Positions 1,284 to 51,036 of a stretch of 64,000 nucleotides of DNA are shown piece by piece. The DNA comes from a virus, in UHGV virus genome UHGV-1455077; one strand, given 5' to 3'. A program made the translations under genes and the position numbers. The stretch's first letter is position 1. Every line of letters begins with the position of its first letter. The notes beneath the pieces were generated by a model. That model saw only the letters and a program-made list of their open reading frames with translations. It had not been told where the DNA came from and made no database searches.

Positions 1284-4200
1284 CTACTCACCTATTCTGA
1301 TATTATGTTCTGTAATTTTTGTAATAATTTGAACATCATCAATAGATGCAGATGATAATAAAATTTCATCTTCTTCACATTCAATTTCAAATAAATTACC
1401 AAATTTATCATTTGAATATGTTGGAACAATAACAACAGTACCAATGTTTTGTTGTAATTTTTGATGAATATAAGTTGATAATTGAGTGAAAAAGAACTTT
1501 TCTCCTGCTTCCATAGTTGCAAAAAATTCATCAATTGCTTGGATAATTTGTTGCTTAATTTCATTATCACTCATAGTTGTTGTTTCATTTTTAATAACTC
1601 TGAAATTAGCTTTATATTCATTATCAGATTCATTACCAAATAAAACTTTATAACTGATTGGATGCCATACCATTGTATCTGACACCATACAATAATTTTC
1701 TAATTCAGCAAATAATGATTTTAATTCATATGCAGATGGTAATTTAGGGAATGTACCTTTTTTACCATTATTTAACCATTCTTGAACAGATTCATAATAT
1801 GTATTAGTTAATACAAACATATCCATAATATTTGTTGGACAAGGGTCAATTACATATGATGAAGATGCATAATGCTTCCATAAGAACAATAAATTATCAA
1901 TACCAGTTCTAATATAATAACTGTCATCACTATATCTATCCATAGTTTTATACATTGAATTCCAATAAACTAATTGTGAGCCAATTTCAATATCAGAAAC
2001 TAATGTCGTATTGCCTTCAATATCTGTTGTCCATTCAACTTCGTGTCCATCATAAACAACATCGACATCATATTTTTCACCTTTATTAAATGTAAATGGA
2101 TTTGAAGGTGTCCATTCATATGTAACACCATTAGATAATTTAACTTTTTTACTAACAGTTACAGAAACTGGTAAAATTGTACCAGCAGGAAAAATTGTTC
2201 CACCTGTTTGACAATAATATAAACTTGATTCAGTTGTATGACCCCATAAACTATCAATTTCTTGAACTGAACTATTAAATGAACCATATTCATCACTTGT
2301 TTTTAAGAAAAACAAGTTTTTTTCACCAATAGAAGTTATTTCACTAAATTGACGAGGATTTTCACTTGAAGAATCTTTATCTAAATCATAACTTGAAACT
2401 TTAAATTGATAAGGGTCAGTATAACCATCTGGATATTTTATTGTTTCAATTGGTTTCCAAAAATAATCTTCTGCTAAATTTTTATTATTATTTGAATTTG
2501 TTTTTAAAACTTTAATATAATCACTTGTAACAAATGATGCGTTATCATCACTTTTATCATTTGTATTAAAGAAGAAGGCAACTTTTTTATCTGAACCAAA
2601 AATATAATCTAAATATCTAATTGTATAAGTCCAATATTGTGAAGACTCATATCTAATTTTCATTATCCAGTTTTTATATAATCCAGATTCAGTATATGGA
2701 TTTTCATAATCAAAACTTATAGAATCATCGGCTAATGTTTCATAATCTAAAACATCCCAACGTTGATTTATATAATCATATGATAAACCAAAAGAAACTT
2801 TATCTTCAATTTTATTTGAAATTTCATAACGAGCTTGAGCATTTAAAATTGTTGAAAATACTCTGTAACCGCCTTTAGCATACCATTTATAATTTGGGTC
2901 TAATACTTCATTAATTGTAATTGAATATTCTTCTTCACTTTCATCACTTGTTACAATATCTAAAATTTTTGCCCAAATTTCACCATCATATCCATCTGCT
3001 TGGAATTTAATCATATATCCAACTTGCATTTGTTTTAATATTTCAGATTTTGGAACAACAACGCCAGTTGCTAAAGATTCTTCACTAATATCAACCATAA
3101 ATCTACCAACTGAACTATTTAAACCAGTTGTATAAGTTTCATTCCAAAATATTTCTTTTGATGAATAAGAATAAGAATTTTCTGGATAATATGAATAAAA
3201 GAAATTATTCAAACTATTAGATGATAATAATGTTTCTATCATATTAATAATTTGTGTTGTATTTGTTGTATCTTCAATAGATGTTTCTGTCATATATAAA
3301 ACATCTTGTTTATAAACATATCCATCTTCTGCTAATATATTTAAATCTTGATATGTTCCTGTCGGGTCATTAAAGTTAATATAACGAGAATTACCTGAAT
3401 AAGTTCTATTAATAGCTTTCAATACTTTAACTTGTTGACCAATAGATTTTGGAAAATAATTATAATCTTGGGCAGTTACCATTCTATTTTGAGTTGAGTA
3501 TACTTGTGGTGCCCTTTCACGAATATATTCCATTGATTCTTGAGTTACTGACTGTCTAATATGTGAAGCATCAGTAATGCTAAATACAACAGTTAAATAA
3601 TATATATTATCATCAGATGTATTATTTGATTTATATGGAATTTTAATAGTTACATCTTGAATATCAGTTGGTTTTAAATATAAATTATCATTACCATTTG
3701 AAACACGATACCATAATTTAAATACGCCAACAGGAATAGTTCCAAATTTACCATCAGAAAATCTTAAAGTAATTCTATCATTTTCTCTTGTTTCAACTTT
3801 AAAAATATCTCTAATAGTTGTATCTGTATTATTATAAACAAGATATTCATTATTTGCTATCTTTGTCCATACATTTTTTACTAATCCAGTTGAAATATCT
3901 AATTCTTCAAACCATACATCATATTCATTAATATTATCTTTATTAACATCAATAAAATAGTTTTCAACTTTTTGTGAAATTACTTGATTTTCATATTGTA
4001 ATGTTCCTTGCTTCCAATAAACAAAGAAACCTGTATTATTTGACCCATTACCAGTTCCATCATTACGATATAATAAATGAAATGCCTGTTCAGGAATTGG
4101 TGTTCTTTCTTCAATTTGAGCTAAATCACTATTAATATCTGGATTAACAACTTCAAACTGTTGAGTTGTCGCATTAACTTGTGATGTAAAAGAAAATACA

Positions 4201-4804: not shown

Positions 4805-4812
4805 ATATTTAT
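4805..4812 (-). promoter_or_regulatory. T4-type late promoter motif TATAAATA (minus strand) about 30 nt upstream of the 1163-aa gene start
   Basis: plus-strand tatttata = TATAAATA on minus strand; position fits the T4 late promoter/5'UTR distance. Confidence 0.35.
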
Positions 4813-4817
4813 ATAAA

Positions 4818-9512: not shown

Positions 9513-12488
9513 TTAAACCAATGTCAAAAATCCACCTAAATCATCATCAATAGTTTGAATAGCTGATTTCATTGATAAATTCCAATTTAATGAACCAAAA
9601 ATTGAATCCATTGTTGTATCAACAATTGTATCAGACATATCTGCTTCATCAAATGGTAACTTTGCAAACCATTCTGGAACATCTGACAAATCTCTTGGAT
9701 AAGCAATTGAAGTCATATTAAATGGATTATTTTTTTTCAATTTACAAACAACAATTTTATTTCCATCCAAAATTCTTGTTGTAGATGTATCGCCATTAAT
9801 TTCTAACATACGATTATAATTAATAGATGCCATAACGTGTCCTGGAACTCTTGCTTTTGGATTTTGACGATATTCTTCTGTATATTTGGTTAAACCATTA
9901 ACAGCTTTTGGTGTTCCTTTTTCCCAAGGTTGTAATGTATTCCATTCATCATTATAAAATGATTTAATAATATCAATTAATTCTTCTTTTTTACCAACCG
10001 ATAATAAAGATTCCATCATTTTCTTTAATAATTTTCTAACAATCATTGGAGTATCAGAACGTTGAATTTGTAAACCTTTAATTTTTAATTTTCCTGCTTT
10101 TCCGTGAACATCATAACGTTCTCCCTCATTATCAAATACCATTAAAGCATAACGTTTTTTTGAAACATACAATCCACGAGTTGCAACAATTTCTCGTGCG
10201 GCTTTAATGATTTTTGCATTTTCATCTGTAACGTGAAAAATGCTTTTTACGTGTTCAGCATAGGAACTGTCCACTTGTTGAGAAATCTCATCTACATATT
10301 TCATAACATTTTCTTTAGTAAAAACAAAATCAGGATGTTTTTCTTTAAATTCAGGTCTTGACAATGCAAAATATGTTGAATCAGTATCACCATAAACAAC
10401 AATACCGCCTGTATGCTTATATGTTCCAACTGCAATTTCATTTAATTTACTTGCCATATGTTGAACAATTTTTCTACCAGAAGCAGTTGTTGATGCTCCT
10501 AATCTAAAATCATAAAAAATTGAACCTGTATTCAACAATGCACCATATGATGAATTTAAATTAATTTTTCTTAAATATTGTTCCAAATCCCAATAATCTT
10601 CTTTTTCTTTATAATAATCTTTATGAATAGGCTCAATAATATTATCATTAAGAATTAAATTATATTCTTCCATATAATTTTGTATTCCATCATAATCACA
10701 ATTATCAATTAAAGTTTTTAATTCTTTTAAATCATATTCCTTAAAATCATATTCAGGTTCATACGGTTTAATATGTTGTTTAATATCATCCGAAACTTTA
10801 ATACCATCTTTTAAATTACGATACATTTTAGATTTAGCTTTCATTGATTTTCTATCCGCATACCATTCAGATAGAATTTTAGCAACTAATCCTTGCTTAT
10901 CCGTTCTAAAAAGAGTTCCAAATGCAGAAATGCATAAATTGCTTCCTTCTTCAAATACCAAATTATAAATCTCTTTAGCTGTCATTTCAGCCGTTTCACC
11001 AGTTTCTAACTGTAACTCTAAAATATCATCCGTTTGATTCATAATTTTTTGGTATTCAAGAGTACCAAACATTTCATCTCCGCCCCAAGCTTCACCCCAA
11101 GATGGAATTCTTTCACCTTTTTTAAACCATAAATTATCTTCTTCAATCTTTTTCCATAAATAAGGCATCGTATAAGTTAATTTAACTTGAGCCACAATTG
11201 TTTCAGGACTCATATTTAAACAACGAATAGTTGATGGATAAAGTGAATTTAAATCTGTATCAGAAATCCATTCGTGCATACCAACTACTGGGTCTTGAAC
11301 AAATGCACCAGGAGGTCTAATACCTTTCCATTCATCACCTTTTCCTTCAACTCTATCGGGAATATATAATCCAGAATCGTGGGCATTATTAATAACAGCT
11401 TGGTCAAACCAAGCAACTGTACCCATTGTTGCTTCTAAAGTTACTAAAATTGAATGTGCTTGTCTATTATGAATATTAATATAATTTAATTTTTTATCTA
11501 AACGAGCCAACAAATCAGTATCTTGACGGTTATATCTTAAAAATAATTCATAATCATCAAAATACAGTCTTGTTAAAGTTCCTTCATATTTAACTTTTCT
11601 ATCACCTAATTCTTCATAAGAAATATTATCCAACGAATATGATTCGTGTTCATTTGGAGTATGTTTTTTATACAATTCCAAATAATCAACTACCCATTTA
11701 CCAACAAATGAATAATTTTTTACAACACGACCATAAGTTTCAACTTCTTTACAAATTGGCTCTTGTTTCCATAAACAGTAATCTTTAATTTTTTCTTTTC
11801 CTAAAACTTTTATTGTTCTTCCAATAATATAAGGAATATCAAAAAAATCAGAGTTCCAACCAGATATTACATCAGCATCATCAAAAAATCGTATCATCAA
11901 ATCAATCAATTGTTTTTCATCTTGACACAAATAGGTATCACCAATACTATCACAAATTTTTTGAGCTTCTTCCCAAGATAAAGTATCAGGTTTAATTGTT
12001 AATGTAATTGTTTTATCAATCCAATCTAAGTAAATTGACACAGCATTAATTGCACACGGAGTTTCAGCTACCAACGTATTAATATCCCCAGATACTGCTG
12101 GGTCATAGTCAACTTCAATATCAAAAAATGCTTTATGTAATTTTGGTTCTTGACAGTTTTTATAATTCTGATATAAAACTTTATGTACCAAATTAAAATT
12201 CATCTCATATGTACGAACACCCGATTCTTTACATTGTTTCTTATGAGTATAAAATTCATTATATTTTCTTAATGTTATTTTCTTCAAACGTTGACCATCA
12301 ATTCCCATATCATATCCATTTTCATCAGGAACTAAATACTCATAAATTAATGGATAAGTTGTTGTTACTCGCTCACCATTAATACGTTCAGAAACAAATA
12401 GTAAATTATTTTGTCTATCTAAATAAGTGCCTACATACATATAATTATCCTCTCTTAAATTACCATCATAATATAACTTAAGATACAA
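9513..12488 (-). CDS. DNA polymerase, family B (T4 gp43-like), 991 aa
   Basis: Exo I motif FDIEVD; polymerase motif C YGDTDS; Pol B motif A/B-like regions; size consistent with gp43. Confidence 0.9.
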   Translation of the reverse strand: MYLKLYYDGNLREDNYMYVGTYLDRQNNLLFVSERINGERVTTTYPLIYEYLVPDENGYDMGIDGQRLKKITLRKYNEFYTHKKQCKESGVRTYEMNFNLVHKVLYQNYKNCQEPKLHKAFFDIEVDYDPAVSGDINTLVAETPCAINAVSIYLDWIDKTITLTIKPDTLSWEEAQKICDSIGDTYLCQDEKQLIDLMIRFFDDADVISGWNSDFFDIPYIIGRTIKVLGKEKIKDYCLWKQEPICKEVETYGRVVKNYSFVGKWVVDYLELYKKHTPNEHESYSLDNISYEELGDRKVKYEGTLTRLYFDDYELFLRYNRQDTDLLARLDKKLNYINIHNRQAHSILVTLEATMGTVAWFDQAVINNAHDSGLYIPDRVEGKGDEWKGIRPPGAFVQDPVVGMHEWISDTDLNSLYPSTIRCLNMSPETIVAQVKLTYTMPYLWKKIEEDNLWFKKGERIPSWGEAWGGDEMFGTLEYQKIMNQTDDILELQLETGETAEMTAKEIYNLVFEEGSNLCISAFGTLFRTDKQGLVAKILSEWYADRKSMKAKSKMYRNLKDGIKVSDDIKQHIKPYEPEYDFKEYDLKELKTLIDNCDYDGIQNYMEEYNLILNDNIIEPIHKDYYKEKEDYWDLEQYLRKINLNSSYGALLNTGSIFYDFRLGASTTASGRKIVQHMASKLNEIAVGTYKHTGGIVVYGDTDSTYFALSRPEFKEKHPDFVFTKENVMKYVDEISQQVDSSYAEHVKSIFHVTDENAKIIKAAREIVATRGLYVSKKRYALMVFDNEGERYDVHGKAGKLKIKGLQIQRSDTPMIVRKLLKKMMESLLSVGKKEELIDIIKSFYNDEWNTLQPWEKGTPKAVNGLTKYTEEYRQNPKARVPGHVMASINYNRMLEINGDTSTTRILDGNKIVVCKLKKNNPFNMTSIAYPRDLSDVPEWFAKLPFDEADMSDTIVDTTMDSIFGSLNWNLSMKSAIQTIDDDLGGFLTLV

Positions 12489-15338: not shown

Positions 15339-16766
15339 TTAATCCTTTTTATAAATTGGATGTTCTAAACAAAAATGTTCTACACCTTCTTTAATAAGCA
15401 TTAAAGCGGCTTCTTCATTTGTTAATTTTCTTCCTTCACAATTTTCAAAAGATTCTTTAATAAAATCAATTCCTTCATAATCATAATCACCTTCTAAAAT
15501 TTCAATAATATGAGCAATCTGATGAGCAATCCACGCACAATCATTTTCAGTTGCACCTCTTGTTGTTATTGCCGCTGTTCCCAATCTAATACCAGAAGTT
15601 TCAGATTTTGGTTTAGGGTCATCTTTAACAGCATTTTTATTAACAACAATTCCAACTTCAGATAATTTATCTTCAACTTGTTTACCTGAAATACCATATT
15701 TTCTTACATCAAGAAGAATCAAATGATTATCAGAACCACCAGAAACCATTGGAATTCGTCTTTCTTCAAAAACTTTTTCCATTGCTTTAATATTTTTAAG
15801 AATTTGTTCTTGATATTGTTTAAATTCTGGTGTTAATGCTTCTTCAAAACAAATTGCTTTACCAGCAATAATATGTTCAAGAGGGCCTCCTTGAATGCCA
15901 GGAAATACGGCTTTATCAATTTTTTTACCTAATTCTTCGTTATTTGAAATAATAATACCACCACGAGTACCACGTAGAGTTTTATGAGTAGTTGAAGTAA
16001 CAACATCTGCATAAAGAAGTGGAGATGGATGTAAACCAGTTGCAACTAATCCTGCAATATGAGCCATATCAACCATTAAATAACAATAAGTATTATTATA
16101 TATTGATGAAATTAACTCATTTGTTACATCAATTGTTTTTCCATAAAATCTTACAGTATTATTCACAAAACCTGGATTTTCCACTACGGAGTGAATAATA
16201 TAATCTTTTAAGTCTTTATTATATTTGTCAACAATTTCTCGAATTCTTTTAAAATCAATAATTCTTGAATATGCAGATGCACCAACAATTAAAATTCTTG
16301 GAAAATGTTGATAAAGTTTTTCTTTAATTTCGTCATAATTAATAATACCATCTTCATCTAAACCATACGAAACTGCATTATATAATTTACCTGATGCAGA
16401 TACTTTACTTCCGTGTGTTAGATGACCCCCTGCATCCAATGACATACCTAAAATTGTATCATCTGGTTTACATAAAGCTAAATAAACAGCCTGATTTGCT
16501 TGTGAACCTGAATGAGGTTGAACATTAGCCCATTTACAATTAAATAATTCTTTACATTTATCAATTGCATATTGTTCAATTTCATCAACATATCGGCAAC
16601 CACCATAATATCGTTTATTTGGATAACCTTCGGCATATTTGTTTGTTAAAATTGAACCAACTACGTTCATAATATCTTTTGATACATAATTTTCAGAAGC
16701 AATCAAACAAATTTCTTCTTCTTGTCTTCTTCTTTCTTTTTCAATAATATCAAATACTTTATTCAT
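15339..16766 (-). CDS. glyA: serine hydroxymethyltransferase (475 aa)
   Basis: PLP-lysine motif [12 protein letters not shown]; conserved SHMT blocks (GSxANxAV, HLTHG). Confidence 0.9.
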
Positions 16767-17990: not shown

Positions 17991-19118
17991 TTACGATATT
18001 GATACTAAAAATAATGTATCATCATACGGAGTATTTTCTAATTCATTTGGTATATCAGGCATTATTTCAAAATCTAAATCATACTTATCTTTACATTGTA
18101 AATACATTAAAATTATCGTTAATGATGCTGTAATTAAATCATCGTGTCCTGAACCATTTGCTGAATATGATGTTGCCATCACAGATTTATTAGAAAAATT
18201 AGATAGTTCTGTTAAATAATCACGAGAAAAAATGTGAAATCTATTTGTTTCAAATAAAATTTTTAATTGTGAACAAGCTTTAGGTTTTGTAATTTTAGTA
18301 GTTGTAAACCCTTTTCTTTTATTACCAATTTCATTTATTAAAGTTGCTCTTTTAATATATGGTTGACCATATTGACTATCTTCAATTTGCTTTAATGCAC
18401 ATAAAAAACCTTCTGCTGACCCATTATTTTCTAAAGACCAATAAATTTCAGGATGCTTATTCCCTTTTTCTTTAATATTAATATACATCCAATCAGTTAA
18501 AACTTTCATTTTTTCAATTTGGTCATTTTGATTTAATTTATCAGATTTCCATTCAGCAACCTGTATAAATCCTGGAAATTCAAAAACTTGAATTGCCGCA
18601 AAATCTCCTGATAAACCCATAGATGTATCAATAGCAACCAAATATTTTTTCCAAGGTTTTAAATCTTGATAAAAACGTATATCTTCATCAACAACAAATT
18701 TATATGTAATTTTATTATTATCAATTTCTAAAATTTTTTGGCGTAAAATCATTGAATCAATTAAAGAATTTGATTTACCAATAAATTCACAATTATGAAC
18801 TAAAATATCATTAGCAAAAAATCTATTTCCATCTGAAACATTTAAAATATCATAAACATCTGTAACTTCACCTTGTTGAATATCTTTTATTTGTTCCAAA
18901 CCATTTTTTGTTAATATCCAATCATCAATTTTTAATTTATTTGCTTCTATACAAGTATATAAATCAATATATATATTATGGTCAGCGGTACAATTAATAA
19001 TATTACCGTTTTTTAATATAATATTTAATGTGGGCATTGATGGTATTTTTTTAATACCATCAAATTCTGCCCACCCATCTGGCGTTAAAATTTTATATTT
19101 TTTATTATTTTTTATCAT
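17991..19118 (-). CDS. terminase large subunit, C-terminal half: 109-aa C-intein fragment (18792..19118) fused to nuclease domain C-extein
   Basis: N-terminal 109 aa contain intein block B (CTADH) and terminal ...DILVHN followed by +1 Cys (codon 18789..18791); C-extein CEFIGKSNSLIDS... and LVAIDTSMGLSGDFAAIQVF match the gp17 RNaseH-like nuclease domain. Confidence 0.8.
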   Translation of the reverse strand: MIKNNKKYKILTPDGWAEFDGIKKIPSMPTLNIILKNGNIINCTADHNIYIDLYTCIEANKLKIDDWILTKNGLEQIKDIQQGEVTDVYDILNVSDGNRFFANDILVHNCEFIGKSNSLIDSMILRQKILEIDNNKITYKFVVDEDIRFYQDLKPWKKYLVAIDTSMGLSGDFAAIQVFEFPGFIQVAEWKSDKLNQNDQIEKMKVLTDWMYINIKEKGNKHPEIYWSLENNGSAEGFLCALKQIEDSQYGQPYIKRATLINEIGNKRKGFTTTKITKPKACSQLKILFETNRFHIFSRDYLTELSNFSNKSVMATSYSANGSGHDDLITASLTIILMYLQCKDKYDLDFEIMPDIPNELENTPYDDTLFLVSIS

Positions 19119-19129
19119 TACTTTATTTA

Positions 19130-20185
19130 TTATCCTTTTGGATATGAACGACTAAAGTAACCAGTAAAAGTCGGAGCAATTTCCAAAAGTTTAGCAAGAT
19201 TCCATTTTGTTAAATATTGCATTAAACGTATACCAACCAAATCAATTTGTTGTGTTTTAACTGAATTCATTATATGATTATCAATATTACTTCTTAAATC
19301 ATCAGGAATTTCTCTTAAATCAATAATTTTTTTATTAAATTCATAACTTTCTTTAACAATATGCTTATTTCCTAAAGGGTCTTCCCAAGTTGAATTCATA
19401 AATGTTTGCCAATTATAACCTCTTTCTTTTCTATCAGCAAATGCATCTAAAATTCCAACAGTTTTTTTTGTTGATTTTTCTCTAATACCTGGATAAGCTG
19501 AAAAAATATTATCAGATTTATCACCACGAATACATTTTGTAAATAATGCATATTCAATCCAATCATCCATTGGAACTAATTTATCACCCTCTTTCCATAA
19601 CATATCAGTTCTTGATACCGAAATTTTACCATCTTTTAAAGTAAATTTCATTGGTAAATGTTTATCATCTGCTGTAAACATACAAGATTCAGTAATAATT
19701 CTATCATCCATTGTATTATAAATAATAACATTCTGATTAACTAATTGAACAAAGTCATTATCTGTTGAAACAATAATTACATTATCATTTGGATGTAATG
19801 CTATAAAACGAGCAATTAAATCATCAGCTTCTGCCTTTGGATAATCTAAAAATGATATATTTGTAGATTCTTTTAAAAATGGTATAAAATCCTTTTCAAA
19901 AATATCTTTTAATTCTTGTTCTTTTTGAATTTCATCAGGCGTTTTATCTTGTAAACGTTCAATACGATTTGCTTTATATTGTGGATAAATGTCTTTTCTC
20001 CAAGTTCCTTTACCATCAGCACAAATAATAGTATGTGTTGGCTTAAATTTATCACACGCTTTTTTAATCATATAAAACATTGTATGTAATAGCATACCTT
20101 TACGTAATTCATTATCCTTTTCCGTAATAGTATACATTGCTCTAAAAAATAAATTATAAATATCAATTAATATAAAAGTATTCAT
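19130..20185 (-). CDS. rnh: RNase H / 5'-3' flap endonuclease (T4 rnh-like), 351 aa
   Basis: FEN-family blocks: ICADGKGTWRKDIYPQYKANR, acidic-cluster residues, T4 RNase H-like N-terminus. Confidence 0.8.
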   Translation of the reverse strand: MNTFILIDIYNLFFRAMYTITEKDNELRKGMLLHTMFYMIKKACDKFKPTHTIICADGKGTWRKDIYPQYKANRIERLQDKTPDEIQKEQELKDIFEKDFIPFLKESTNISFLDYPKAEADDLIARFIALHPNDNVIIVSTDNDFVQLVNQNVIIYNTMDDRIITESCMFTADDKHLPMKFTLKDGKISVSRTDMLWKEGDKLVPMDDWIEYALFTKCIRGDKSDNIFSAYPGIREKSTKKTVGILDAFADRKERGYNWQTFMNSTWEDPLGNKHIVKESYEFNKKIIDLREIPDDLRSNIDNHIMNSVKTQQIDLVGIRLMQYLTKWNLAKLLEIAPTFTGYFSRSYPKG

Positions 20186-20556
20186 TCGCCAATCTCACTA
20201 AAATCTTTATATTGTTGAGTATCTGTATCCCAAATACATTTTTTGGTTTTCATATCACCCATTTTTTCATTCATTAATGTATATGTATATTCATCTAATG
20301 GTATTAAATTAATAAGTTTTGCTTCCTCATTATGAATAACTTTATCTTCAATTGTAAAATAAAATTTAAAATTATTATTCTTACAATATTTTTTAAGAAT
20401 TTTTGCACATTCCGTAGTCATATCATCTTCAAATTCTTCTTCATTATTGTATTCATCCTGTTTTTCTTTCATCTGCAAACAAATTTCTGCTAATTCCTTT
20501 GTCATATCATCAATAATAATTTTTTCTTTTTCCATTATTTCCTTAAGTTCATTCAT
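20182..20556 (-). CDS. hypothetical acidic protein (124 aa)
   Basis: ORF overlapping rnh start. Confidence 0.4.
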   Translation of the reverse strand: MNELKEIMEKEKIIIDDMTKELAEICLQMKEKQDEYNNEEEFEDDMTTECAKILKKYCKNNNFKFYFTIEDKVIHNEEAKLINLIPLDEYTYTLMNEKMGDMKTKKCIWDTDTQQYKDFSEIGE

Positions 20557-20561
20557 ATTTT

Positions 20562-21197
20562 TTATCCCATTAAAATTGTATTATCACCTAATTTTCGTTT
20601 TGTTAAATATCTTTTTTCTTCTTCTGACTCATTTTCATCAAGCATTGAAGTAATATCATCTAAATCCATATTTGCCATAAAAAACAATTTTAACCATTGT
20701 TCGGCAATTTCTTCATCTGTATCACCTGGAAGCCCTTTTTTACGCATATTACTAATAAATGTTTTATTATAAACAACTTCAACCATTAAATTATCAGGGT
20801 CATTCTGCTCATCATAATCAGTATGAATAGCTACCCACGGTTTTCCAAGTAAATCATTTTTTTCTTTGCAATAATCAATTTCACTAATTTTTTTATACTT
20901 ATGCTTTAAATCAATTTCATTTATTAATCTTTCAGTTTCAGGCTTATCAATATCTCTAATTTGAAGTAATTGATATTCATAATCAAAATCATCAATTTTA
21001 TTATATTTTTTTTGAATTTCTAATTTTCTTAACTTATAATCAGCTAATTCTTTTAAATTTTCAGATGGATAATCTAATTTCAATATTTCCATTTCCTTAT
21101 CATACCCATTTTCCATTTCATAATCAATTTTAGCATATTCTCTTGCCTTGCCTGTAAGTAATAATCCTTTAAATGTTAATCCAAATGGTATTTTCAT
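20562..21197 (-). CDS. hypothetical protein (211 aa)
   Basis: ORF downstream of sheath gene; no motif. Confidence 0.45.
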   Translation of the reverse strand: MKIPFGLTFKGLLLTGKAREYAKIDYEMENGYDKEMEILKLDYPSENLKELADYKLRKLEIQKKYNKIDDFDYEYQLLQIRDIDKPETERLINEIDLKHKYKKISEIDYCKEKNDLLGKPWVAIHTDYDEQNDPDNLMVEVVYNKTFISNMRKKGLPGDTDEEIAEQWLKLFFMANMDLDDITSMLDENESEEEKRYLTKRKLGDNTILMG

Positions 21198-21259
21198 TTA
21201 TAAATCCTTTTTATAATTGTTAACCAATTATAAAACAAAAATATTGAAAAATTCAATAA

Positions 21260-21296
21260 TAAAAAACCTCTAAAAAATTTTAGAGGTTTTTTATTT
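21260..21296. terminator. strong hairpin terminator (13-bp stem aaaacctctaaaa/ttttagaggtttt) after sheath gene
   Basis: Perfect 13-bp stem, 2-nt loop, T-rich flanks on both strands. Confidence 0.7.
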
Positions 21297-21312
21297 ATTA
21301 TACTAATAAAAA

Positions 21313-24300
21313 TTAGCTATTACTACTTGATAATGCTCCAGTACGAACAATACGAATAGGAATATAAATTTGTTCAACACCTTTAACAATTTCAATAGCA
21401 ATTTCTGCCCACAATTCTTTACGACCAATTCTTTCAGAAGTATTAACTGAATTATCAGTAACTAATGTATAGTCATATAATTCATCTCTTGATACATAAT
21501 CATTTAAGATGCTTCTTAATGTTTTATCAAAATCACGTCTTAAAGCTTCTGTATTTGGTTGGAAGAAGAATGGTAAGCAAGCGGCATCTAATTCACGTTT
21601 TAATCTTAAAATAGTTAAGATTGCGTGTTCATCAGATAATGAAGATGAATAACTATTTTCAGTATTTTCACCCCAGAATAATAAACCTGTATTACGCTGT
21701 GGCATAATTGGGTTCATTGATTGAGCAACAATAACTTCACCCAAACTATCTCTAACTGTTACTGGTGCATATTCATTTTCATCTGTAATATAACCAACAG
21801 ATGCTAAATTCTTAACTTGACCATATTGAGTACCAGCGGCAAACATACCTCTTGGTAATACTAATAAGTTTTTCATTTTTGCAACTGAAGTTGGAACAGC
21901 AATATCTGAACCATCAACATTTGAAGTTAATCCCATTGGTGGATATTGACGTGTGATATAAGGACTTCTAATAACACGACCATCTAAACCGTGTGCTGAT
22001 GCATTATTTTGATTTGAACCCCAAGCAATAATATCATTAGCTTTTGGAGCTAATCTTGCTGGAGAATCACTGACAATATAGAACATTTCTTTTTTATCAG
22101 TATTCAAACTAATTAATTCATCATCCAATTCTGGATAACCTGTACAAGTTGCAAAGAAGAAGTCATAATCTTGAGAACGAATTTCATCATTAGAATTAAT
22201 AGCTTCTGCTAATGCTTTTATAATCATTGCTCTTTGAGCTTTTCGACCAAATAATCCTGCTCCATCAGTTGAATTACCTGAAATTGTTGCCCAACGAGTT
22301 GTTTTTGGGTTTGTTGAAGAACCTGGTGTTGGGAAATCTTTAGAAGCACCAACAGTAAATGTTCCACCTAATTCCTTAACAGCATTTTGATATTCATTTG
22401 TCATTTCTTTAACATTATTTGTTGAGTATAATGTATTGAATAACAACATACCAGCGGCATATGTTTGAGGATTTGGACAGTTAGGGTCAACATAATCTGA
22501 AATTAATAAATCTTCTGATTTTGTTGAAAATGGTGTATGAGTTGAATCTGCATAAGCAGGGCCTGCATTCTCACGTGCATCTGCAAATACAACGCCTAAA
22601 GGTGTAGTTTGGTCAGTATTATCAACTAATTCCCATTCACCTTCATAATATCTATACATTGTTGGATATTCATTTGCGGCTGTATCAATCCATAAATCAT
22701 ATTCTTGTAAAGCAGAACCATCTGCGTGTTGTGTTGGCTGTTCAGAAGTTACAAAAATGTCTGCACATTCGTACATATTTTTATAACCTTTCCATTCATC
22801 ACCATCATTAACCATAATATCAACATTTAATGCATCATTAAACCATAATGTACCATCTGTTGCAATTTCAGTTGGTTCAACAGCACTTGCAATATAAGTT
22901 GGTTCACTCCATTTTCCTAATTCTCCAGAAGCAATACCAACAGTTTCTAAGATTTTACCATCGGCAACATCTTGGAAATCAATAGTATTACCTGTTGAAG
23001 AAACTAATCTTAAATAACCTTCAGTTGTTACATCAGCAACAATTGTTGGAATTTTAGCATTATTAATTGCTTTAGCTAAATATTCGACTGTTGTTCCATA
23101 AGCTCTAATTGTATAAGTTTTAACTTCTGTTCCAATTAAAGTTCTAATTGTAAATGCTTCTCCTGATGTAATTGTTGGATTTGAAACTGTACCAACAACT
23201 TTTAATCCTAATGAACCATATTGTGCTAATCTTGTTTCTGCTAAACCTTCATTATCATATTTAACAATGATTGAACCAGAATTTAAAGAAGCACCTAAAA
23301 CTCTTTCAGCTTCAATAAATGAGCCATACATTGGCATTTTAATTGTTTTCCAAGAATCATTAGTTGAATTATATTGTTTCATAATATAATTTACACCATT
23401 ATTTGGTTCTGTTGTTTTAACCCAAATTGAACCTTGTACTGAACCATTTGGAACTTGAGAATGAGTTTTATGAACTAATGAAACGGCATTAACAACTGCT
23501 TCATCACCATTCATTACAAAACCTAAAGTTTCTAATGCTTTTCTTGAATCTTGAGTAATAGTTAATAAAGTTGCTGTATTTTTAATAACCAATGCATTAT
23601 TTTCATTGATTGCAACAATATTTTCAATTGATGCATTATTAATATCTTTAACAGCATCATCAATTTTTGTAGTTGATGATACACCACTTAATGTTACTTC
23701 TGTACCATTAATTGTAATTTTAGCTCCTGTATCATAAGTTCCATTTGCTTTACCTTTAGCACTTGAAGGGAATTGTAACATCCATTCATTTGAACCTAAT
23801 TCATACCATTCACTTGCAATATTTTCATAAATAACTTGTTTATTTCCTGATGTAACAACAGCAATATCATTATTTGCACCGTATGTTCCAAGAGGTTTAC
23901 CATCTTCACCAATTTCATTTTCTGATGGAATTAATACATTTTCAATTTTATCCCAAGCTAAAGCAGGACGAGAATTACCATTTGCTCTAAATAAACCATA
24001 TGAAGTTTCCGCAGTATCAAACCATAATGTTTGATTTGGAACGTTACTTGTTGGTTCTGCTTGAGTTGCCTGTAATTGTTTTAAGTCAATATCAGCTCTA
24101 AGTGCATATGCTAAAGATGAACTTCCTAAAGCACTATACAAAGCGTATAAACCAACTTCATTTAATTCATCACCTTGTTGAACTGTTCCATCATTTGTTG
24201 TATAATTTGGTATACCATATGTATCAGTAACATCTTTTTGTGAAGTCATAACAAGTAATTCATTAGCAACTGATTTTGAGGTACCAGGTGCAATTTCACC

Positions 24301-24426
24301 TGTACTTTCGTCAATAACTTTATCTTGTTCTGTCGCAAAGATATAAAGAGGAATTATCGGAGAAACACCTGTTCCATATGATGATTCATCTGTTATTTCA
24401 ATGTGAGATTTTGCTAATTCTGACAT
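21313..24426 (-). CDS. tail sheath protein (gp18-like), 1037 aa with extra inserted domains
   Basis: N-terminal and C-terminal (YDYTLVTDNSVNTSERIGRKELWAEIAIEIV...IPIRIV) regions resemble conserved sheath termini; adjacency to terminase as in T4; longer than T4 gp18. Confidence 0.55.
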   Translation of the reverse strand: MSELAKSHIEITDESSYGTGVSPIIPLYIFATEQDKVIDESTGEIAPGTSKSVANELLVMTSQKDVTDTYGIPNYTTNDGTVQQGDELNEVGLYALYSALGSSSLAYALRADIDLKQLQATQAEPTSNVPNQTLWFDTAETSYGLFRANGNSRPALAWDKIENVLIPSENEIGEDGKPLGTYGANNDIAVVTSGNKQVIYENIASEWYELGSNEWMLQFPSSAKGKANGTYDTGAKITINGTEVTLSGVSSTTKIDDAVKDINNASIENIVAINENNALVIKNTATLLTITQDSRKALETLGFVMNGDEAVVNAVSLVHKTHSQVPNGSVQGSIWVKTTEPNNGVNYIMKQYNSTNDSWKTIKMPMYGSFIEAERVLGASLNSGSIIVKYDNEGLAETRLAQYGSLGLKVVGTVSNPTITSGEAFTIRTLIGTEVKTYTIRAYGTTVEYLAKAINNAKIPTIVADVTTEGYLRLVSSTGNTIDFQDVADGKILETVGIASGELGKWSEPTYIASAVEPTEIATDGTLWFNDALNVDIMVNDGDEWKGYKNMYECADIFVTSEQPTQHADGSALQEYDLWIDTAANEYPTMYRYYEGEWELVDNTDQTTPLGVVFADARENAGPAYADSTHTPFSTKSEDLLISDYVDPNCPNPQTYAAGMLLFNTLYSTNNVKEMTNEYQNAVKELGGTFTVGASKDFPTPGSSTNPKTTRWATISGNSTDGAGLFGRKAQRAMIIKALAEAINSNDEIRSQDYDFFFATCTGYPELDDELISLNTDKKEMFYIVSDSPARLAPKANDIIAWGSNQNNASAHGLDGRVIRSPYITRQYPPMGLTSNVDGSDIAVPTSVAKMKNLLVLPRGMFAAGTQYGQVKNLASVGYITDENEYAPVTVRDSLGEVIVAQSMNPIMPQRNTGLLFWGENTENSYSSSLSDEHAILTILRLKRELDAACLPFFFQPNTEALRRDFDKTLRSILNDYVSRDELYDYTLVTDNSVNTSERIGRKELWAEIAIEIVKGVEQIYIPIRIVRTGALSSSNS

Positions 24427-24551
24427 ATTTTCACTCCTATTAAATTAAATTATTTTTATTGTAAAAATAATTATAAAAACTTGTCTAAAAGTCTTTACAT
24501 ATATTTATGAAATAGGGTAAAAATAAAGGGGTAAACACATAACGAAATAAT

Positions 24552-24580
24552 TTGAAAGATATTTATTAAATATCTTTCAA
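24552..24580 (+). promoter_or_regulatory. perfect 29-nt palindrome ttgaaagatattta-t-taaatatctttcaa directly 5' of RBS of paralog gene A
   Basis: Read directly; conserved core TATTTA-N-TAAATA shared with elements at 31768 and 51049. Confidence 0.5.
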
Positions 24581-24593
24581 AGAGGATTTTATT

Positions 24594-25010
24594 ATGACTG
24601 ATATTAGTAAAATAAACATAGAAAGAATCAATGAGTTATCAACGAAATTAGATAATTTTAATACACAAATTAATAATATTAATTCAAAAATAAATTCAAT
24701 GAAATATGTTATTGATGCTAATTCTGATGGTAATCGTTGGTACCGAAAATGGAATGATGGATTTATTGAACAAGGCGGAAATAATATTATAAATTTAAAT
24801 AATGCTAATGAAGGAACAATTACATTTTTAACTCCATTTAATACTACTTCTTATATACCTCAAATAACTGTATATAATAGTAATGGTTCTTGGGTTTATG
24901 GTTGGATTAAATGGGATTCACGAACAAAAAATAATTTTATTTATTTTACTGCTGGTAGTAGAGCTGGTGATACTTCTAATGGAGCTTTTTGGTATGCTTA
25001 TGGATATTAA
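24594..25010 (+). CDS. small conserved protein, paralog family member A (138 aa)
   Basis: N-term MTDISKINIERINEL..., core WYRKWNDGFIEQGG, C-terminal ...YGY; paralogous to 31807..32202 and 50668..51036. Confidence 0.6.
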   Translation: MTDISKINIERINELSTKLDNFNTQINNINSKINSMKYVIDANSDGNRWYRKWNDGFIEQGGNNIINLNNANEGTITFLTPFNTTSYIPQITVYNSNGSWVYGWIKWDSRTKNNFIYFTAGSRAGDTSNGAFWYAYGY

Positions 25011-26170
25011 TAATATTCATATAACATTTCAAGAGAAAGACTTCTTATATATCCTTTTTCATCCATAATTTGCACAATATTATTTCCACCAATACAATTA
25101 TATTCTCGTTCAAAACGTTCAGCACCAACTTTTTTAATTTCAGCTTTTGCCCAATTTTCATCTTTTAATGGGCAAGCATCCCATCTAACTAATTGACTTT
25201 GAAATCCATTATTTCCATATGATTTTTTTGGAACAACATTAACAATTGTATTTTCATCTCTTAATGATTTAGCATATTCTTCTGCTTGGTCTTTATCTTT
25301 AAATAAATGAAAATCTCTATATAATTCACCATTAATTTCTAATATATAATCATCTGGTATATTCATTCCATAATCATCAATTTTGTTTTTAGCTCCTGAC
25401 CATAATCTAAAAAATAAATCTGTTTCAGAAATAGGAGTTGAAGTAATAAACAATTTACCTTGTGTAGCTGATAATGTTGGTGATAATGCACCATAAAATT
25501 CTTCTTGTTTCTCTAAAGCTTTATCTCCAGAATCTTGTACACCAATAAAAGCAAACTCATCACAATAAACAATTGCAGGAGAAATACCACGGGGAGCTTT
25601 AATAGTTGATGGTCTTACGTGAATTTCAGACCCATTATCAAAAACCATTTTTGATTTGTTATCTTCTTTTAATCCTTTCTTCAAAAAATCAGGACAATTT
25701 TCATACACACCTTTTATTTTTCCGAGGTTTTCCGATGCGGCACGCAAATCTTGAGCAGTTACCAAAATAATTTTATTATTAAATACCATTGCGTACCAAA
25801 GTAAATAAATGGCTGTTGTAATTGTTTTACCATTCTGACGAGAAAATAAAGAAATTAAAGAATGGTAATTATGCATATTAAACATCATTTCTCGTTGATA
25901 ATCAAATGGAATATATTGTTCCAAACCATTTCTATTAACCCAACAACAATGTTCGGCAAAAAACAACGCCCCATTAATTGGGTCATAAACTTTACGATAA
26001 ACCATTTTTTGAACATCTGTCATCTTTTTAAATGGTTTTGTTTTTTTAATAACACCAGTACCTTGAGGTAAAACAATTTTCATAATTTTTCCTTTATTAA
26101 AATTATTTATATTCGCATATTTATAAAATATCTTGTTTTCAGTTTTACAATAAATATTCTTATAAAACAT
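25007..26170 (-). CDS. terminase large subunit, N-terminal half: ATPase domain N-extein plus 29-aa N-intein fragment (25010..25096)
   Basis: Walker A SRQNGKT, Walker B IVYCDEF (gp17-like); ORF ends with CIGGNNIVQIMDEKGYIRSLSLEMLYEYY (intein block A-like, Cys codon 25094..25096) then stop. Confidence 0.85.
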   Translation of the reverse strand: MFYKNIYCKTENKIFYKYANINNFNKGKIMKIVLPQGTGVIKKTKPFKKMTDVQKMVYRKVYDPINGALFFAEHCCWVNRNGLEQYIPFDYQREMMFNMHNYHSLISLFSRQNGKTITTAIYLLWYAMVFNNKIILVTAQDLRAASENLGKIKGVYENCPDFLKKGLKEDNKSKMVFDNGSEIHVRPSTIKAPRGISPAIVYCDEFAFIGVQDSGDKALEKQEEFYGALSPTLSATQGKLFITSTPISETDLFFRLWSGAKNKIDDYGMNIPDDYILEINGELYRDFHLFKDKDQAEEYAKSLRDENTIVNVVPKKSYGNNGFQSQLVRWDACPLKDENWAKAEIKKVGAERFEREYNCIGGNNIVQIMDEKGYIRSLSLEMLYEYY

Positions 26171-32232: not shown

Positions 32233-34371
32233 TTATCCGTGTAACGAATCATCAATAAATGTTCTTCGTTGAAATTCCCAATTTCTTCTTGTTGGATTCC
32301 AAGAATCTACTGGAACAAAGAAACCAACAACACGAGTAAAGTATTGCATATGTTCATTATGACCACATTTTGAACAACTTGCAACTTTATGGTCATAAAC
32401 TGAACCACACTCTGGACATTTTGAATAAACAGAATTTAATACAAAATGTTCACAACCACATTTAATAGCATATAAAATAATTTTTCTATTTTGTGCCGCT
32501 GTTGTTTTAGAACCTAATTGTGCGTGTACAATACCACCACCTGTTAATAACTGATTGTATTTTCCATCAGCTTCCAATTTTTCCCAAATAGTTGCATCTT
32601 CCCATAATGGAACAAACTGATTGGCATATAATGGAGCATCAATTATATTATCATTGAAAATTAAATTATCAACTGTTGCCAATCTTACAGCATAGGATTC
32701 TCCTGGAATCTGTTCAATATTAGAAAATAAACCTAATTCTTTTGCATATTCTTGTGAATGTTTATTTAAATAAACTAAATAATCATTCATTACATCCTGA
32801 CCTTCTTTAATTTCATCAGAAAATTTAGTTTCAAGGATTTTTTTAGCTTCAACAACACCCAGAATACCAAATGTTGAGAATAATCTATCCATACGAATCC
32901 AACCACGAGTAATAAATGGTTCAAGACCTTTAGCTTCCATTTTACCAATTAATACTTTATGAGCTTTTAAAACTTTTGCCGCACCACGAATTCTTTTATC
33001 TAAAATTTTATAGAAATCTTCCATTGAATTAGCTTCATATGCAATACGAGCAAAATTAATAGTTACAACACGATGTGAACCCATTGATACAGTTGAGCCA
33101 CCAAATGAATTAACTGTCGAACCCATATCTAATAATTCAGCATCATTAATTAAACGACAACAAGAAGCAACTTTTGTTCCCTTAGAAGTAAAAATATTGA
33201 ATCTTGTAATATCACGTTGGCAAACAAAATCAAAAAAGTTTTCATCTAAGATATTTCCATCATCATCTTTTGAAATATTCATAGTAGTAACAGGAAAACG
33301 ATATGGAATACCATTATTTAATGGGTCACCTTTTTCGTGGAATTTTGCATAAATTTCTTGTAATTCCATAATATAATTAATAACAAAATCTTTCCATTCA
33401 TCAGCAGACATTTTATCTTCTAATCCATTATCAAGAGCAATATCTTTTTTATTTGCAAAATACCATCCATAATTATCTGCACCAACTAAACCTGATAATT
33501 TTACTCTATCAAATAATGAAATATTAGTAAATGGAGATTCTACACCATTTCTCGACAAATGATTTACTGAATGAACAAATGTTTGAAAACAATTTTCAAT
33601 ATATTTTCTCATTGTTGGGTCATTTTTAACAACTTCAAATGGAACACGTTGTTTATAAATTAAAATATGTGCAATATCTAAGAAAAATGTTCCAACAGCA
33701 ATTGCACCTGCTAAATGAGAAGACATCTGATGTACAGTTTCATCTAATGCAGAAATATATGAATCAACACGATGAACAGGGGCAGATGGTAATTGACCGA
33801 ATTTACGACCTTCCATAACTAATTTAGAAGCATCTAATGCCCAACAATATGGAATTAAAATATTAGTTGAATCTGATAAGCCTAATGAAAAATCATATAA
33901 ATCACCAGATAATACTTTAGCTTCGGCTTGACCATATAAATCTTTCATTACTCCATAAAGCATATGATAACCAATCAATTTACGATTAGAAGCAGTAATT
34001 TCATTGTTTACGCCTGCAATTGTCTTTTCATTTTTATTTGAATTATCATCAATTGATACATCATTAACACGTGAATCTAAAATTTTTGCAAAGTTTGCCA
34101 ATGTATCAAAATTGGTAGCATCTAAACCGTGAATATTTAAAATTTTAGATGTTAATTCTTTTAATTCACCATTTGAAAATCCATATTTTTTCTTTAAAGC
34201 TGATGCTAAAGTTTTTTTAATATTTTTAATTGTTCGTGTTGTTTCCGCATTAATTAAAATATCGTCTGAAACTTTATCTAATTCTTTTTTAAAATCTTCA
34301 TCTTCATAGTAAGAATCCACAATAGTTGGACTCTTAACATTTAATATTTTTTTAACTGTCAAATCAGACAT
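32233..34371 (-). CDS. nrdD: anaerobic ribonucleoside-triphosphate reductase (class III), 712 aa
   Basis: Size, C-terminal Zn-ribbon CxxC...CxxC (CPECGS...CSKCGH) and glycyl-radical region ...TRVVGFF; followed by nrdG. Confidence 0.8.
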   Translation of the reverse strand: MSDLTVKKILNVKSPTIVDSYYEDEDFKKELDKVSDDILINAETTRTIKNIKKTLASALKKKYGFSNGELKELTSKILNIHGLDATNFDTLANFAKILDSRVNDVSIDDNSNKNEKTIAGVNNEITASNRKLIGYHMLYGVMKDLYGQAEAKVLSGDLYDFSLGLSDSTNILIPYCWALDASKLVMEGRKFGQLPSAPVHRVDSYISALDETVHQMSSHLAGAIAVGTFFLDIAHILIYKQRVPFEVVKNDPTMRKYIENCFQTFVHSVNHLSRNGVESPFTNISLFDRVKLSGLVGADNYGWYFANKKDIALDNGLEDKMSADEWKDFVINYIMELQEIYAKFHEKGDPLNNGIPYRFPVTTMNISKDDDGNILDENFFDFVCQRDITRFNIFTSKGTKVASCCRLINDAELLDMGSTVNSFGGSTVSMGSHRVVTINFARIAYEANSMEDFYKILDKRIRGAAKVLKAHKVLIGKMEAKGLEPFITRGWIRMDRLFSTFGILGVVEAKKILETKFSDEIKEGQDVMNDYLVYLNKHSQEYAKELGLFSNIEQIPGESYAVRLATVDNLIFNDNIIDAPLYANQFVPLWEDATIWEKLEADGKYNQLLTGGGIVHAQLGSKTTAAQNRKIILYAIKCGCEHFVLNSVYSKCPECGSVYDHKVASCSKCGHNEHMQYFTRVVGFFVPVDSWNPTRRNWEFQRRTFIDDSLHG

Positions 34372-40860: not shown

Positions 40861-41154
40861 ATGAAATTAGCGAATTTAAAATTATATCAAATTCGTAAGT
40901 TGCCTGAATGTTATTGGGTTCAACATCCAATGCAGTTAGGTGGAACTAAAGAAACAAATAACGCAAAATATATTAATGCTACAATATTTCAATTAAATAA
41001 TGAAAATATATTATATGGAATGAAACATTATATGTTATATGATGAAGACCATATTTTTACAGAATTACAAGAAGCTATAGATTATTGTACTGAAAATGGA
41101 TGGGTTTATCATCTTAAAGAAAATTATAATTATAAAGGATTAGAGAATGGTTAA
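40861..41154 (+). CDS. hypothetical protein (97 aa)
   Basis: ORF translationally coupled to neighbours. Confidence 0.4.
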   Translation: MKLANLKLYQIRKLPECYWVQHPMQLGGTKETNNAKYINATIFQLNNENILYGMKHYMLYDEDHIFTELQEAIDYCTENGWVYHLKENYNYKGLENG

Positions 41155-41821
41155 AATAATTGAACCAAGTGTTGAAATCGTAAGTGAAATTAATTCGGAT
41201 AAAATGTTAAAACAGATTGAAAAATGTGTCAGAAATTGTTATAAATCTGAAAATAATATTACTGAAGATACAACATCTGCTGTTAAAATGATTGGTAAAT
41301 TGATTGAAATGGGTCATACTGCAATGATTGAATTTGCTGATGTTATTGTTAATCTTCATTGTGATGTTGGTGTTTATAAAGATTTAACACGTCATCGTCA
41401 TTGCAGTTTTGCTATTGAATCTACAAGATATTGTAATTATTCTAAAGGTAAATTTGGAAATGAAATTTCTGTAATTAAACCTTGTAATATGGATGAAAAT
41501 TCTGGAATTTATCATACTTGGCTTAAAGCAATGAATGATATGGAAAGAGCATATATGCAGATGGCAGAAATTGGTGCAACACCTGACCAATTAAGAATGA
41601 TTCTTCCACACAGTACAGCCGCAAGTGTAATGATGAAAGCTAATATTAGAGAATGGCGACATATTTTTAATTTAAGATGTGCTAAAGCGGCTCATCCATC
41701 TGTTAGACAGATTATGCTTATGACTTTAAATGAATTTCATAATAAAATTCCAGTTTTATTTGATGATTTATATGAGCAATTTAAATTTGATATTGATGAT
41801 GTAAATAATAAAAAAGATTGA
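41147..41821 (+). CDS. thyX: flavin-dependent thymidylate synthase ThyX (224 aa)
   Basis: ThyX signature RHRHCSFAIESTRY (RHRxxSxxxxSxRY) and conserved H/R positions. Confidence 0.85.
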   Translation: MVKIIEPSVEIVSEINSDKMLKQIEKCVRNCYKSENNITEDTTSAVKMIGKLIEMGHTAMIEFADVIVNLHCDVGVYKDLTRHRHCSFAIESTRYCNYSKGKFGNEISVIKPCNMDENSGIYHTWLKAMNDMERAYMQMAEIGATPDQLRMILPHSTAASVMMKANIREWRHIFNLRCAKAAHPSVRQIMLMTLNEFHNKIPVLFDDLYEQFKFDIDDVNNKKD

Positions 41822-44042: not shown

Positions 44043-44045
44043 TTT

Positions 44046-46401: not shown

Positions 46402-46428
46402 ATAATTTATATATTTTAAGGAAATAAA

Positions 46429-50671: not shown

Positions 50672-51036
50672 TATCCACACGCATACCACCATCCAGTTGC
50701 ATTGTATGAACCTGAACGACTAAAAGTTATTTGATGGTTATTGACAATTGATACTCTTAAATTAACAGAATTTGAATCATTTCTAATTGCTATGCATATT
50801 GTATAATTAGTATTAGAAAATGCTTTATGAATTGTTTTAGTTTCTGTATTTATTGTATTAGTTCCTAAAAAACCACCTTGTTCAATCCAGCCATCTGACC
50901 AAACACGATACCATTCAGTTCCTTCATTCCAAGTTTCCACAACATATTTCATTGAATTAAGTTTATCAGTTACTTCTTCAAGTTTATCAAGTAATCCATT
51001 AATTCGTTCCATATCAATTTTTGAAACATCAGTCAT
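50668..51036 (-). CDS. small conserved protein, paralog family member C (122 aa)
   Basis: MTDVSKIDMERINGL..., WYRVWSDGWIEQGG, ends ...ACGY. Confidence 0.6.
   Translation of the reverse strand: MTDVSKIDMERINGLLDKLEEVTDKLNSMKYVVETWNEGTEWYRVWSDGWIEQGGFLGTNTINTETKTIHKAFSNTNYTICIAIRNDSNSVNLRVSIVNNHQITFSRSGSYNATGWWYACGY

Follow-up and report, generated by a model that had tools for sequence, protein, structure and literature searches.

The 64,000-nucleotide stretch of UHGV virus genome UHGV-1455077 analyzed here (the window) encodes the large terminase subunit (TerL) of a jumbo phage in two separate genes, each of which carries one piece of an intein. TerL-N encodes the ATPase half of the enzyme and ends in a short intein segment (IntN), and TerL-C opens with a longer intein segment (IntC) that precedes the nuclease half. 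From their sequences, we assign these two extra segments as the two pieces of a single class-1 intein of the naturally, atypically split TerL type. Because all class-1 requirements are present and homologs of this class splice in vitro (PMC11766414), the two TerL products very probably associate through their intein pieces and are ligated into a 595-residue TerL with the junction EREYN-CEFIGKS. We infer this chemistry, and its requirement for DNA packaging, from the anatomy, homology, fold, conservation and genomic arrangement documented below. The original prediction for this region had placed the two genes on one strand, which it left unstated, with TerL-C five genes downstream; both prove to lie on the minus strand, and five genes occupy the 5,888-bp gap (19119–25006).

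TerL-N had been called a gp17-like ATPase on account of the motifs SRQNGKT and IVYCDEF. Its translation contains both, as Walker A and Walker B, respectively, and the protein matches Pfam Terminase_6N (E 2e-10), in agreement with that call. It is ~35% identical to the contiguous TerLs of Rak2-like jumbo phages (tblastn). The C terminus reads ...AERFEREYN and continues with the 29 residues CIGGNNIVQIMDEKGYIRSLSLEMLYEYY up to the stop codon. Translation probably starts at the 30th codon, an ATG at 26083 (Met30), leaving the upstream 29 codons untranslated, because most database versions of TerL-N are 358 residues long and begin MKIVLPQ, because the upstream codons are not kept in frame in 88%-identical relatives (L003–L005) and because the Met30 ATG is closely preceded by a Shine–Dalgarno-like AAAGGA and two TATAAATA boxes. 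The alternative ATG at 26170 would lengthen TerL-N by 29 residues, and public annotations conflict on this point, with 387- and 358-residue versions coexisting. One 358-residue version (P0121) is 100% identical to TerL-N over the aligned region (BLASTP); its printed C-terminal stretch differs by an S in place of the window's P.

The two segments contain the hallmarks of class-1 inteins. IntN starts with the nucleophile, a cysteine (Cys1) placed right after ...EREYN. IntC contains the block B Thr-x-x-His motif (T44-A-D-H47, within CTADH) and ends ...ANDILVHN109, with the His-Asn pair H108-N109 followed by C110-EFIGKS; C110 is the Cys+1 residue (codon 18789–18791). The 109-residue intein segment and +1 cysteine anticipated at the start of TerL-C are therefore present. 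When IntN was searched together with nine flanking residues, its sole match was PDB 6dsl_A (CatN; E 0.0036), which bears out the identification of the Cys-initial tail after ERFEREYN as an intein N-terminal piece. IntC matched PDB 6dsl_B (CatC, a consensus engineered intein) with an E value of 5.4e-13, and other inteins matched more weakly. With both chains of 6DSL matched by sequence, the AceL-TerL-type geometry of a short N-piece (29 residues) and a long C-piece (109 residues) stands as proposed. Fused in silico, IntN and IntC align end to end with Cat (36% identity), and the fusion is 32% identical to the contiguous mini-intein of a related TerL (L017); these are the kinds of intein to which alignment had been recommended. 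The natural break between IntN and IntC corresponds to the linker position in the contiguous L017 intein.

We modeled the whole TerL-C protein with AlphaFold from a 36-sequence family alignment (mean predicted local distance difference test score of 86, ~90 over residues 1–109). The model consists of a β-rich domain with a Hint fold (residues 1–109), a disordered segment (111–117) and an α/β domain. Foldseek matched modeled residues 1–109 to many inteins (E 1e-5 to 3e-8), including 6dsl_B (target template-modeling score of 0.78, 32% identity), VidaL (6vgv), gp41-1, 6qaz and the DnaB and RecA mini-inteins. These structural matches, together with those to 6DSL, bear out the Hint similarity of the intein segments. 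The nuclease domain of the model matched the RB49 and T4 gp17 nucleases (3c6a and 3cpe; E 2e-8), and TerL-C matches Pfam Terminase_6C in addition to a sub-threshold match to Intein_splicing.

Alignments to uninterrupted terminases locate the insertion site precisely. TerL-N alignments to ~2,500 phage genomes always end at Cys1 (tblastn). At 61 uninterrupted TerL loci in IMG/VR, almost all N-half alignments stop at residue 328–330 (Met30 numbering), and the C-half alignments restart at TerL-C residue 108–110, a few nucleotides away. Intein-less terminases read ...KREYNCEFV... (P0190) and ...SREFECRFIGKS... (P0094; REFE-CRF, 43–50% identical) at this site, and because both carry the cysteine, Cys+1 is a native terminase residue. 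The TerL spliced in silico aligns to T4 gp17 (3ezk; E 1.2e-26) in one stretch that spans the junction, pairing FEREYN-CEFIGKSNSLI with FRQEHT-AAFEGTSGTLI of gp17, and the insertion site falls at about gp17 residue 353/354. In the gp17 structure, this position immediately precedes the hinge that links the ATPase and nuclease domains. The joined protein thus has the composition of a T4-type large terminase, with a Walker A/B ATPase and an RNase-H-like nuclease collinear with gp17, and both the intein-less relatives and the gp17 alignment agree with the earlier view of FEREYN/CEFIGKS as a conserved T4-type site. Its length is probably ~595 residues (329 + 266) and not the ~624 first proposed, because the 29 N-terminal codons of the 387-residue open reading frame (ORF) are probably untranslated. 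Splicing would give the junction sequence EYNCEFIGK, and the unspliced end of TerL-N is ...EYNCIGGNNIVQIMDEK.

A homolog search across 5.8 billion proteins returned 443 relatives of TerL-C and 76 of TerL-N. Among the 120 TerL-C relatives listed, nearly all are 357–386 residues long with an N-terminal intein piece, and these 120 IntC–TerL-C cluster representatives plus the window make up an alignment of 121 sequences. The catalytic residues of the intein are retained in more than 100 protein clusters: T44 in 114 of the 121 sequences, H47 in 112, and D90 and N109 in 116 each, with Cys+1 in all 118 that have a residue at that column. The penultimate residue of IntC is His in 97 sequences, Ser in 16 and Lys in 3. 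T44, H47, D90 and N109 do not vary across the 36-sequence alignment, and many members of the TerL-C family have a precomputed match to the Pfam family PF14890 (Intein_splicing). On the TerL-N side, Cys1 is found in 70 of 71 aligned members, and IntN tails range from 29 to 39 residues (mode 29). The ratio of nonsynonymous to synonymous substitution rates (dN/dS), measured against a 77%-identical relative, is 0.22 in IntN and 0.54 in IntC, and 0.14 and 0.21 in the N- and C-exteins, respectively. This test of selection is weak, because synonymous sites approach saturation in a genome of 26% GC; dN/dS is usable for the closest pair only, and the values of 0.5–1.4 for distant pairs (saturation, AT bias) are left uninterpreted.

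By analogy with AceL-TerL, GOS-TerL and Cat, IntN would dock onto the larger IntC and complete the Hint fold. Cys1 would then form a thioester through an N–S acyl shift, the ATPase domain would be transferred onto Cys+1, and cyclization of Asn109 would free the intein. A final S–N shift would leave an ordinary peptide bond, ...EREYN-CEFIGKS..., at the ATPase/nuclease boundary.

Several observations weigh against this reading. PF14890 scores 25.6–26.9 bits, below its cut-off of 35.8 (E ~1e-5); this shortfall is a failed database threshold and not a biological criterion, and we do not count it as evidence against the intein assignment. IntC evolves faster than the exteins (dN/dS of 0.54 versus 0.14–0.21). 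A terminator-like hairpin after the sheath gene implies that the TerL halves may sit on different transcripts, and an intact second TerL could lie elsewhere in a genome of which 64 kb was read.

The strongest competing account is a two-subunit terminase that works without splicing, in which the intein pieces are a non-covalent dimerization module or decaying remnants. Split-intein fragments do associate ahead of any chemistry, and this account would accommodate the faster evolution of IntC and the 19 family members in which Ser or Lys takes the place of the penultimate His. However, the residues needed only for chemistry (Cys1, the block B Thr and His, the terminal Asn and Cys+1) persist in at least 112 of 121 sequences spanning 31–99% identity, AceL-TerL, GOS-TerL and Cat splice efficiently (PMC11766414), and an active consensus intein also has a penultimate Ser (...IVSH-A, 6dsl_B). 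We therefore regard this account as improbable. Less probable again is that the two ORFs are non-functional fragments of a TerL broken by rearrangement, with an intact terminase outside the window. Other gut jumbo phages are reported to have had their TerL replaced through horizontal transfer (PMC12880540), and only 64 kb of this genome is in view, but both ORFs are intact, their exteins are under purifying selection (dN/dS of 0.14–0.21), the two halves are kept together across a large clade, and a 282-kb contig of a relative has a single TerL-N locus among the 80 IMG/VR matches listed. No other match to TerL queries was found in the related loci searched, and a profile of IntC, the only query run against the window for further copies, found no second IntC in its 64 kb.

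The arrangement itself recurs in independently assembled relatives, for which the identities given are those of TerL-C against the window. The order TerL-N, sheath, virion protein, RNase H, TerL-C is shared by L002 (99%, the window's layout, on a 217-kb contig), L003–L005 (77%, gap of 5.5 kb, on 203–282-kb contigs), L006 (62%, 5.9 kb, on a 280-kb scaffold), L090 (53%, 5.1 kb) and L092 (53%, 4.5 kb). L011 (54%), compared by spacing alone, has a gap of 5.1 kb. RNase H is followed by TerL-C, directly or through one or two small ORFs, in L003–L008, L090 and L092. That the ORFs are really one contiguous gene divided by an assembly artifact or frameshift, or come from different genomes brought together in a 5.9-kb chimeric join, has a negligible chance of being right even for a window from an uncultured metagenomic phage whose 8.2-kb region has no megablast match among isolated phages: the layout recurs on independent contigs from different samples, database records place exact copies of the two TerL proteins on 101 and 148 contigs of up to 293 kb, and each half carries a complete, complementary intein piece with a proper stop or start codon. 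The two halves are thus truly non-adjacent, a point on which the original prediction had asked for confirmation. Exact and near-identical copies of the TerL halves on contigs of up to ~290 kb also identify the source as a jumbo phage. In GenBank, DAF56639 and DAF56640 of Myoviridae sp. ctWb16, an unclassified metagenome-assembled virus whose name has the form used in a human-metagenome virus catalog, are both annotated as 'large terminase protein' with the intein unmentioned.

Table 1 Features of the split TerL region, in positions of the window
Feature	Position	Strand	Description
TerL-N ORF	26170..25007	minus	387 aa counted from first ATG
TerL N-extein, gp17-type ATPase domain	25097..26083	minus	329 aa, Met30 (MKIVLPQ...) to ...ERFEREYN
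IntN	25010..25096	minus	29 aa, CIGGNNIVQIMDEKGYIRSLSLEMLYEYY; Cys1 codon 25094-25096; stop codon 25007-25009
IntC	18792..19118	minus	109 aa; block B T44-A-D-H47, block F D90, block G H108-N109
TerL C-extein, RNase-H-like nuclease domain	17991..18791	minus	Cys+1, EFIGKS..., 266 aa + stop codon
TerL-C ORF	19118..17991	minus	375 aa
Tandem TATAAATA boxes, candidate T4-type late promoters	26104-26111, 26118-26125	minus	Exact matches
Intervening gene 1, gp53-like_C tail-fiber-type	24594..25010	plus	138 aa; Pfam Gp53-like_C E 3e-5, score equal to cut-off
Intervening gene 2, tail sheath	21313..24426	minus	1037 aa; Pfam Phage_sheath_1C
Terminator-like hairpin after sheath gene	21258-21295		17-bp stem, then T-rich tail
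Intervening gene 3, virion structural protein	20562..21197	minus	211 aa; phrog_13349 E 5.5e-22
Intervening gene 4	20182..20556	minus	124 aa; no Pfam or PHROG match
Intervening gene 5, T4-type RNase H / flap endonuclease	19130..20185	minus	351 aa; 5_3_exonuc_N E 3e-26 + RNaseH_C

The gap between the halves holds five ORFs, one of them on the plus strand (Table 1), including the tail sheath and RNase H genes that had been expected there and that Pfam matches now support. Intervening gene 1 converges on the TerL-N stop codon with a 4-nt overlap, intervening gene 3 has a tblastn match to CBB_269 of phage CBB, annotated as 'structural protein', and intervening gene 4 has no tblastn match in the 77%-identical relatives L003–L005. 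None of the five contains a homing-endonuclease domain by Pfam or PHROG. The product of intervening gene 1 has a paralog elsewhere in the window: the small ORFs at 24594–25010 (plus strand, 138 residues) and 50668–51036 (minus strand, 122 residues) share the N terminus MTD(I/V)SKI..ERIN and the C terminus ...WY A(Y/C)GY.

The TATAAATA boxes, which correspond to the T4 late-promoter consensus, lie 21–42 nt upstream of the TerL-N Met30 start and may act as late promoters. This motif is rarer than chance in the 26% GC window (15 copies found, 26 expected), and several copies sit 20–50 nt upstream of ORF starts (for example, at 4806–4813, 26104–26125, 46397–46404 and 51118–51125), which suggests T4-like late transcription. 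A scan of the window for sigma-70 promoters performed no better than on shuffled sequence. Because the hairpin follows the sheath gene, the TATAAATA boxes stand at TerL-N and TerL-C starts 11 nt past the RNase H stop codon, the two halves may be made from different transcripts.

More distant relatives show other arrangements of the two halves. Among environmental relatives 30–36% identical, L012/L027 and L021 have halves that abut or overlap. A single ORF separates them in others, encoding HNH and NUMOD3 domains in L024, GIY-YIG and NUMOD3 in L025 and L026, and DUF7487 in L013 (8962–10014) and L019 (8986–10002); in L009, of the same group, two genes lie between them. In L091 (49% identical), TerL-N is followed by a 622-residue ORF with helix-turn-helix and DUF7487 domains (1322–3190) and then TerL-C. 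DUF7487 may be an uncharacterized homing-endonuclease family, judging from its position alone, where HNH or GIY-YIG genes sit in other relatives; a search for sequence relatives of solved structure found none for DUF7487. The between-halves ORFs of L014 (8956–9999) and L022 (8942–9922) resemble the DUF7487 ones by eye only. In the window's own jumbo-phage clade, gene order is inverted on one 59-kb contig, Ga0247611_10000840 (L010, 10001–11086, and L089, 10001–11128; 60–66% identical), where TerL-N follows 12.8 kb downstream of TerL-C, both on one strand. Dispersed halves are thus spaced by 4.5–12.8 kb among relatives, and in L007 (51%) and L008 (41%), also of this clade, there is no TerL-N within 10 kb either side of TerL-C.

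Among cultured phages, the closest are the Rak2-like jumbo phages (for example, CBB), which have an uninterrupted TerL directly downstream of RNase H and upstream of a homolog of the window's 570-residue ORF. Gene order therefore points to a TerL-C that stayed in the ancestral RNase H neighborhood, with TerL-N and the sheath block having apparently moved after the split. In the window's lineage the homing endonuclease is absent, and the halves have drifted apart with ordinary genes between them. A further step, that TerL has become a fixed two-gene enzyme and is no longer the scar of a selfish element, is a speculative proposal that we hold as unlikely on present evidence; it draws on the loss of the endonuclease, the different neighborhoods of the halves, their probably different transcripts, the variable spacing (4.5–12.8 kb) and the inverted gene order in one lineage. 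If it were true, trans-splicing would be an obligatory step in assembly of the packaging motor, by which the phage might hold back or gate a nuclease-competent terminase until it has produced both halves.

Apart from this locus, TerL is an intein hot spot in the environmental relatives, with three sites: the P-loop (GK|), Walker B (LLY|) and the ATPase–nuclease junction. TerL is in four pieces with three short-N split inteins in L016 (2298–5671) and is encoded in three pieces in L022 (6662–11083). L017 (1281–2843) carries the Walker-B intein in contiguous form, and the P-loop intein of L014 (7051–8955) is ~330 residues long, enough for a putative endonuclease domain.

The intein class to which these pieces belong has been known since 2009 and is characterized both biochemically and structurally (PMC2677866; PMC11766414). 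Dassa et al. described in 2009 a terminase locus 'fractured at an unusual point', whose C-piece is long (PMC2677866); AceL-TerL was characterized in 2014 (Thiel et al.) and GOS-TerL in 2015 (Bachmann & Mootz), the structure of Cat, the engineered consensus of these two naturally split inteins, was solved in 2018 as 6DSL (Stevens et al.), and all three are summarized in PMC11766414. As here, the host protein of AceL-TerL, GOS-TerL and Cat is a phage TerL. In the AceL-/GOS-TerL class the break follows the first N-terminal motif, leaving an IntN of 25–37 residues (29 here) and an IntC of 104–122 (109 here). Both of our pieces resemble this class by sequence, and the C-piece does so also by fold; at ~32–36% identity to Cat and to the L017 intein, the window's intein is a distinct member. 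It has Cys1 with a penultimate His-Asn pair, whereas GOS-TerL has Ser1. The flanks retained in Cat (EFE/CE) resemble those here (EYN/CE), with Glu after Cys+1 in both.

The genomic layout is where the window departs from the earlier examples. In the Lake Gatun fractured terminase locus (Dassa et al. 2009, PMC2677866) the halves lie on the same strand, as they do here. The fractured-gene layout, however, has a lone free-standing homing-endonuclease gene between the halves (PMC2677866); the window has none there and for that reason falls outside this layout, which is instead the one seen in L013, L019, L024–L026 and L091 (HNH, GIY-YIG or DUF7487 between the halves). In this 26% GC jumbo phage, five ordinary phage genes fill the 5.9 kb that separate the halves, and such a dispersed, endonuclease-free arrangement resembles that of the cyanobacterial DnaE split intein. 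In Ssp and Npu DnaE, an essential enzyme is encoded by two unlinked genes with no intervening endonuclease and is made by obligatory protein trans-splicing. DnaE differs in its canonical split (long N-piece, short C-piece), its cellular genome and its host protein. VidaL (6VGV), among the best Foldseek matches to the modeled IntC (root-mean-square deviation of 1.4 Å over 102 columns, 20% identity), is a naturally atypical split intein from a cold-lake metagenome, with a different host protein and an N-piece of ~16 residues. The terL split described for the gut 'Jug' jumbo phages is caused by group I introns, another mechanism. We found no dispersed, endonuclease-free split TerL in the literature searched, which excluded the primary AceL, GOS and Cat papers; this layout is the sole unusual aspect of the system, and we do not claim it as new.

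The window and its relatives enlarge the very small group of natural short-N split inteins by one well-supported member and more than 100 sequence clusters; such inteins are valued in protein semisynthesis and labeling because the N-piece can be a synthetic peptide. They also place this intein class in near-complete jumbo-phage genomes and not in short metagenomic reads. The series from contiguous intein through adjacent and endonuclease-separated halves to dispersed halves documents a path from selfish insertion to a permanently two-gene essential enzyme. For annotation, 'two terminase genes' or a 'truncated TerL' in a jumbo phage can be one trans-spliced protein, a caution that is relevant wherever TerL serves as a phylogenetic marker.

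Elsewhere in the window, a search for a second intein piece (tblastn and IntC profile) gave a single recurring weak match, at 47730–47804 on the plus strand, where the N terminus of a LigA-type ligase has a likeness to blocks F and G (VYDSLYDIGKKFYPNDIFF); because it is without both the His-Asn pair and the nucleophile, we judged it to be a chance match. The window has an ORF with a KLDGCS ligase motif and encodes a family-B DNA polymerase and the anaerobic ribonucleotide reductase NrdD (both by Pfam). The ORFs at 15339–16766 and 41147–41821 appear by eye to be serine hydroxymethyltransferase and ThyX, and Pfam calls on homologs in related loci back the former. Together, the polymerase, NrdD, serine hydroxymethyltransferase, ThyX and ligase group is listed at 9513–12488, 15339–16766, 32233–34371, 41147–41821 and 47616–49550. 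No tRNA genes were found in the 64-kb window. At 41878–46401 on the plus strand, a run of three radical-SAM ORFs, of which two have SPASM domains, flanks a 272-residue ORF (43224–44042) with a very Cys-rich C terminus (...CSRSCQINCQNRCQVSCQGCNTKQCHDQNCGSV). By its gene content, this cluster looks like a peptide-maturation cluster of the kind that makes ribosomally synthesized and post-translationally modified peptides, carried in a jumbo phage.

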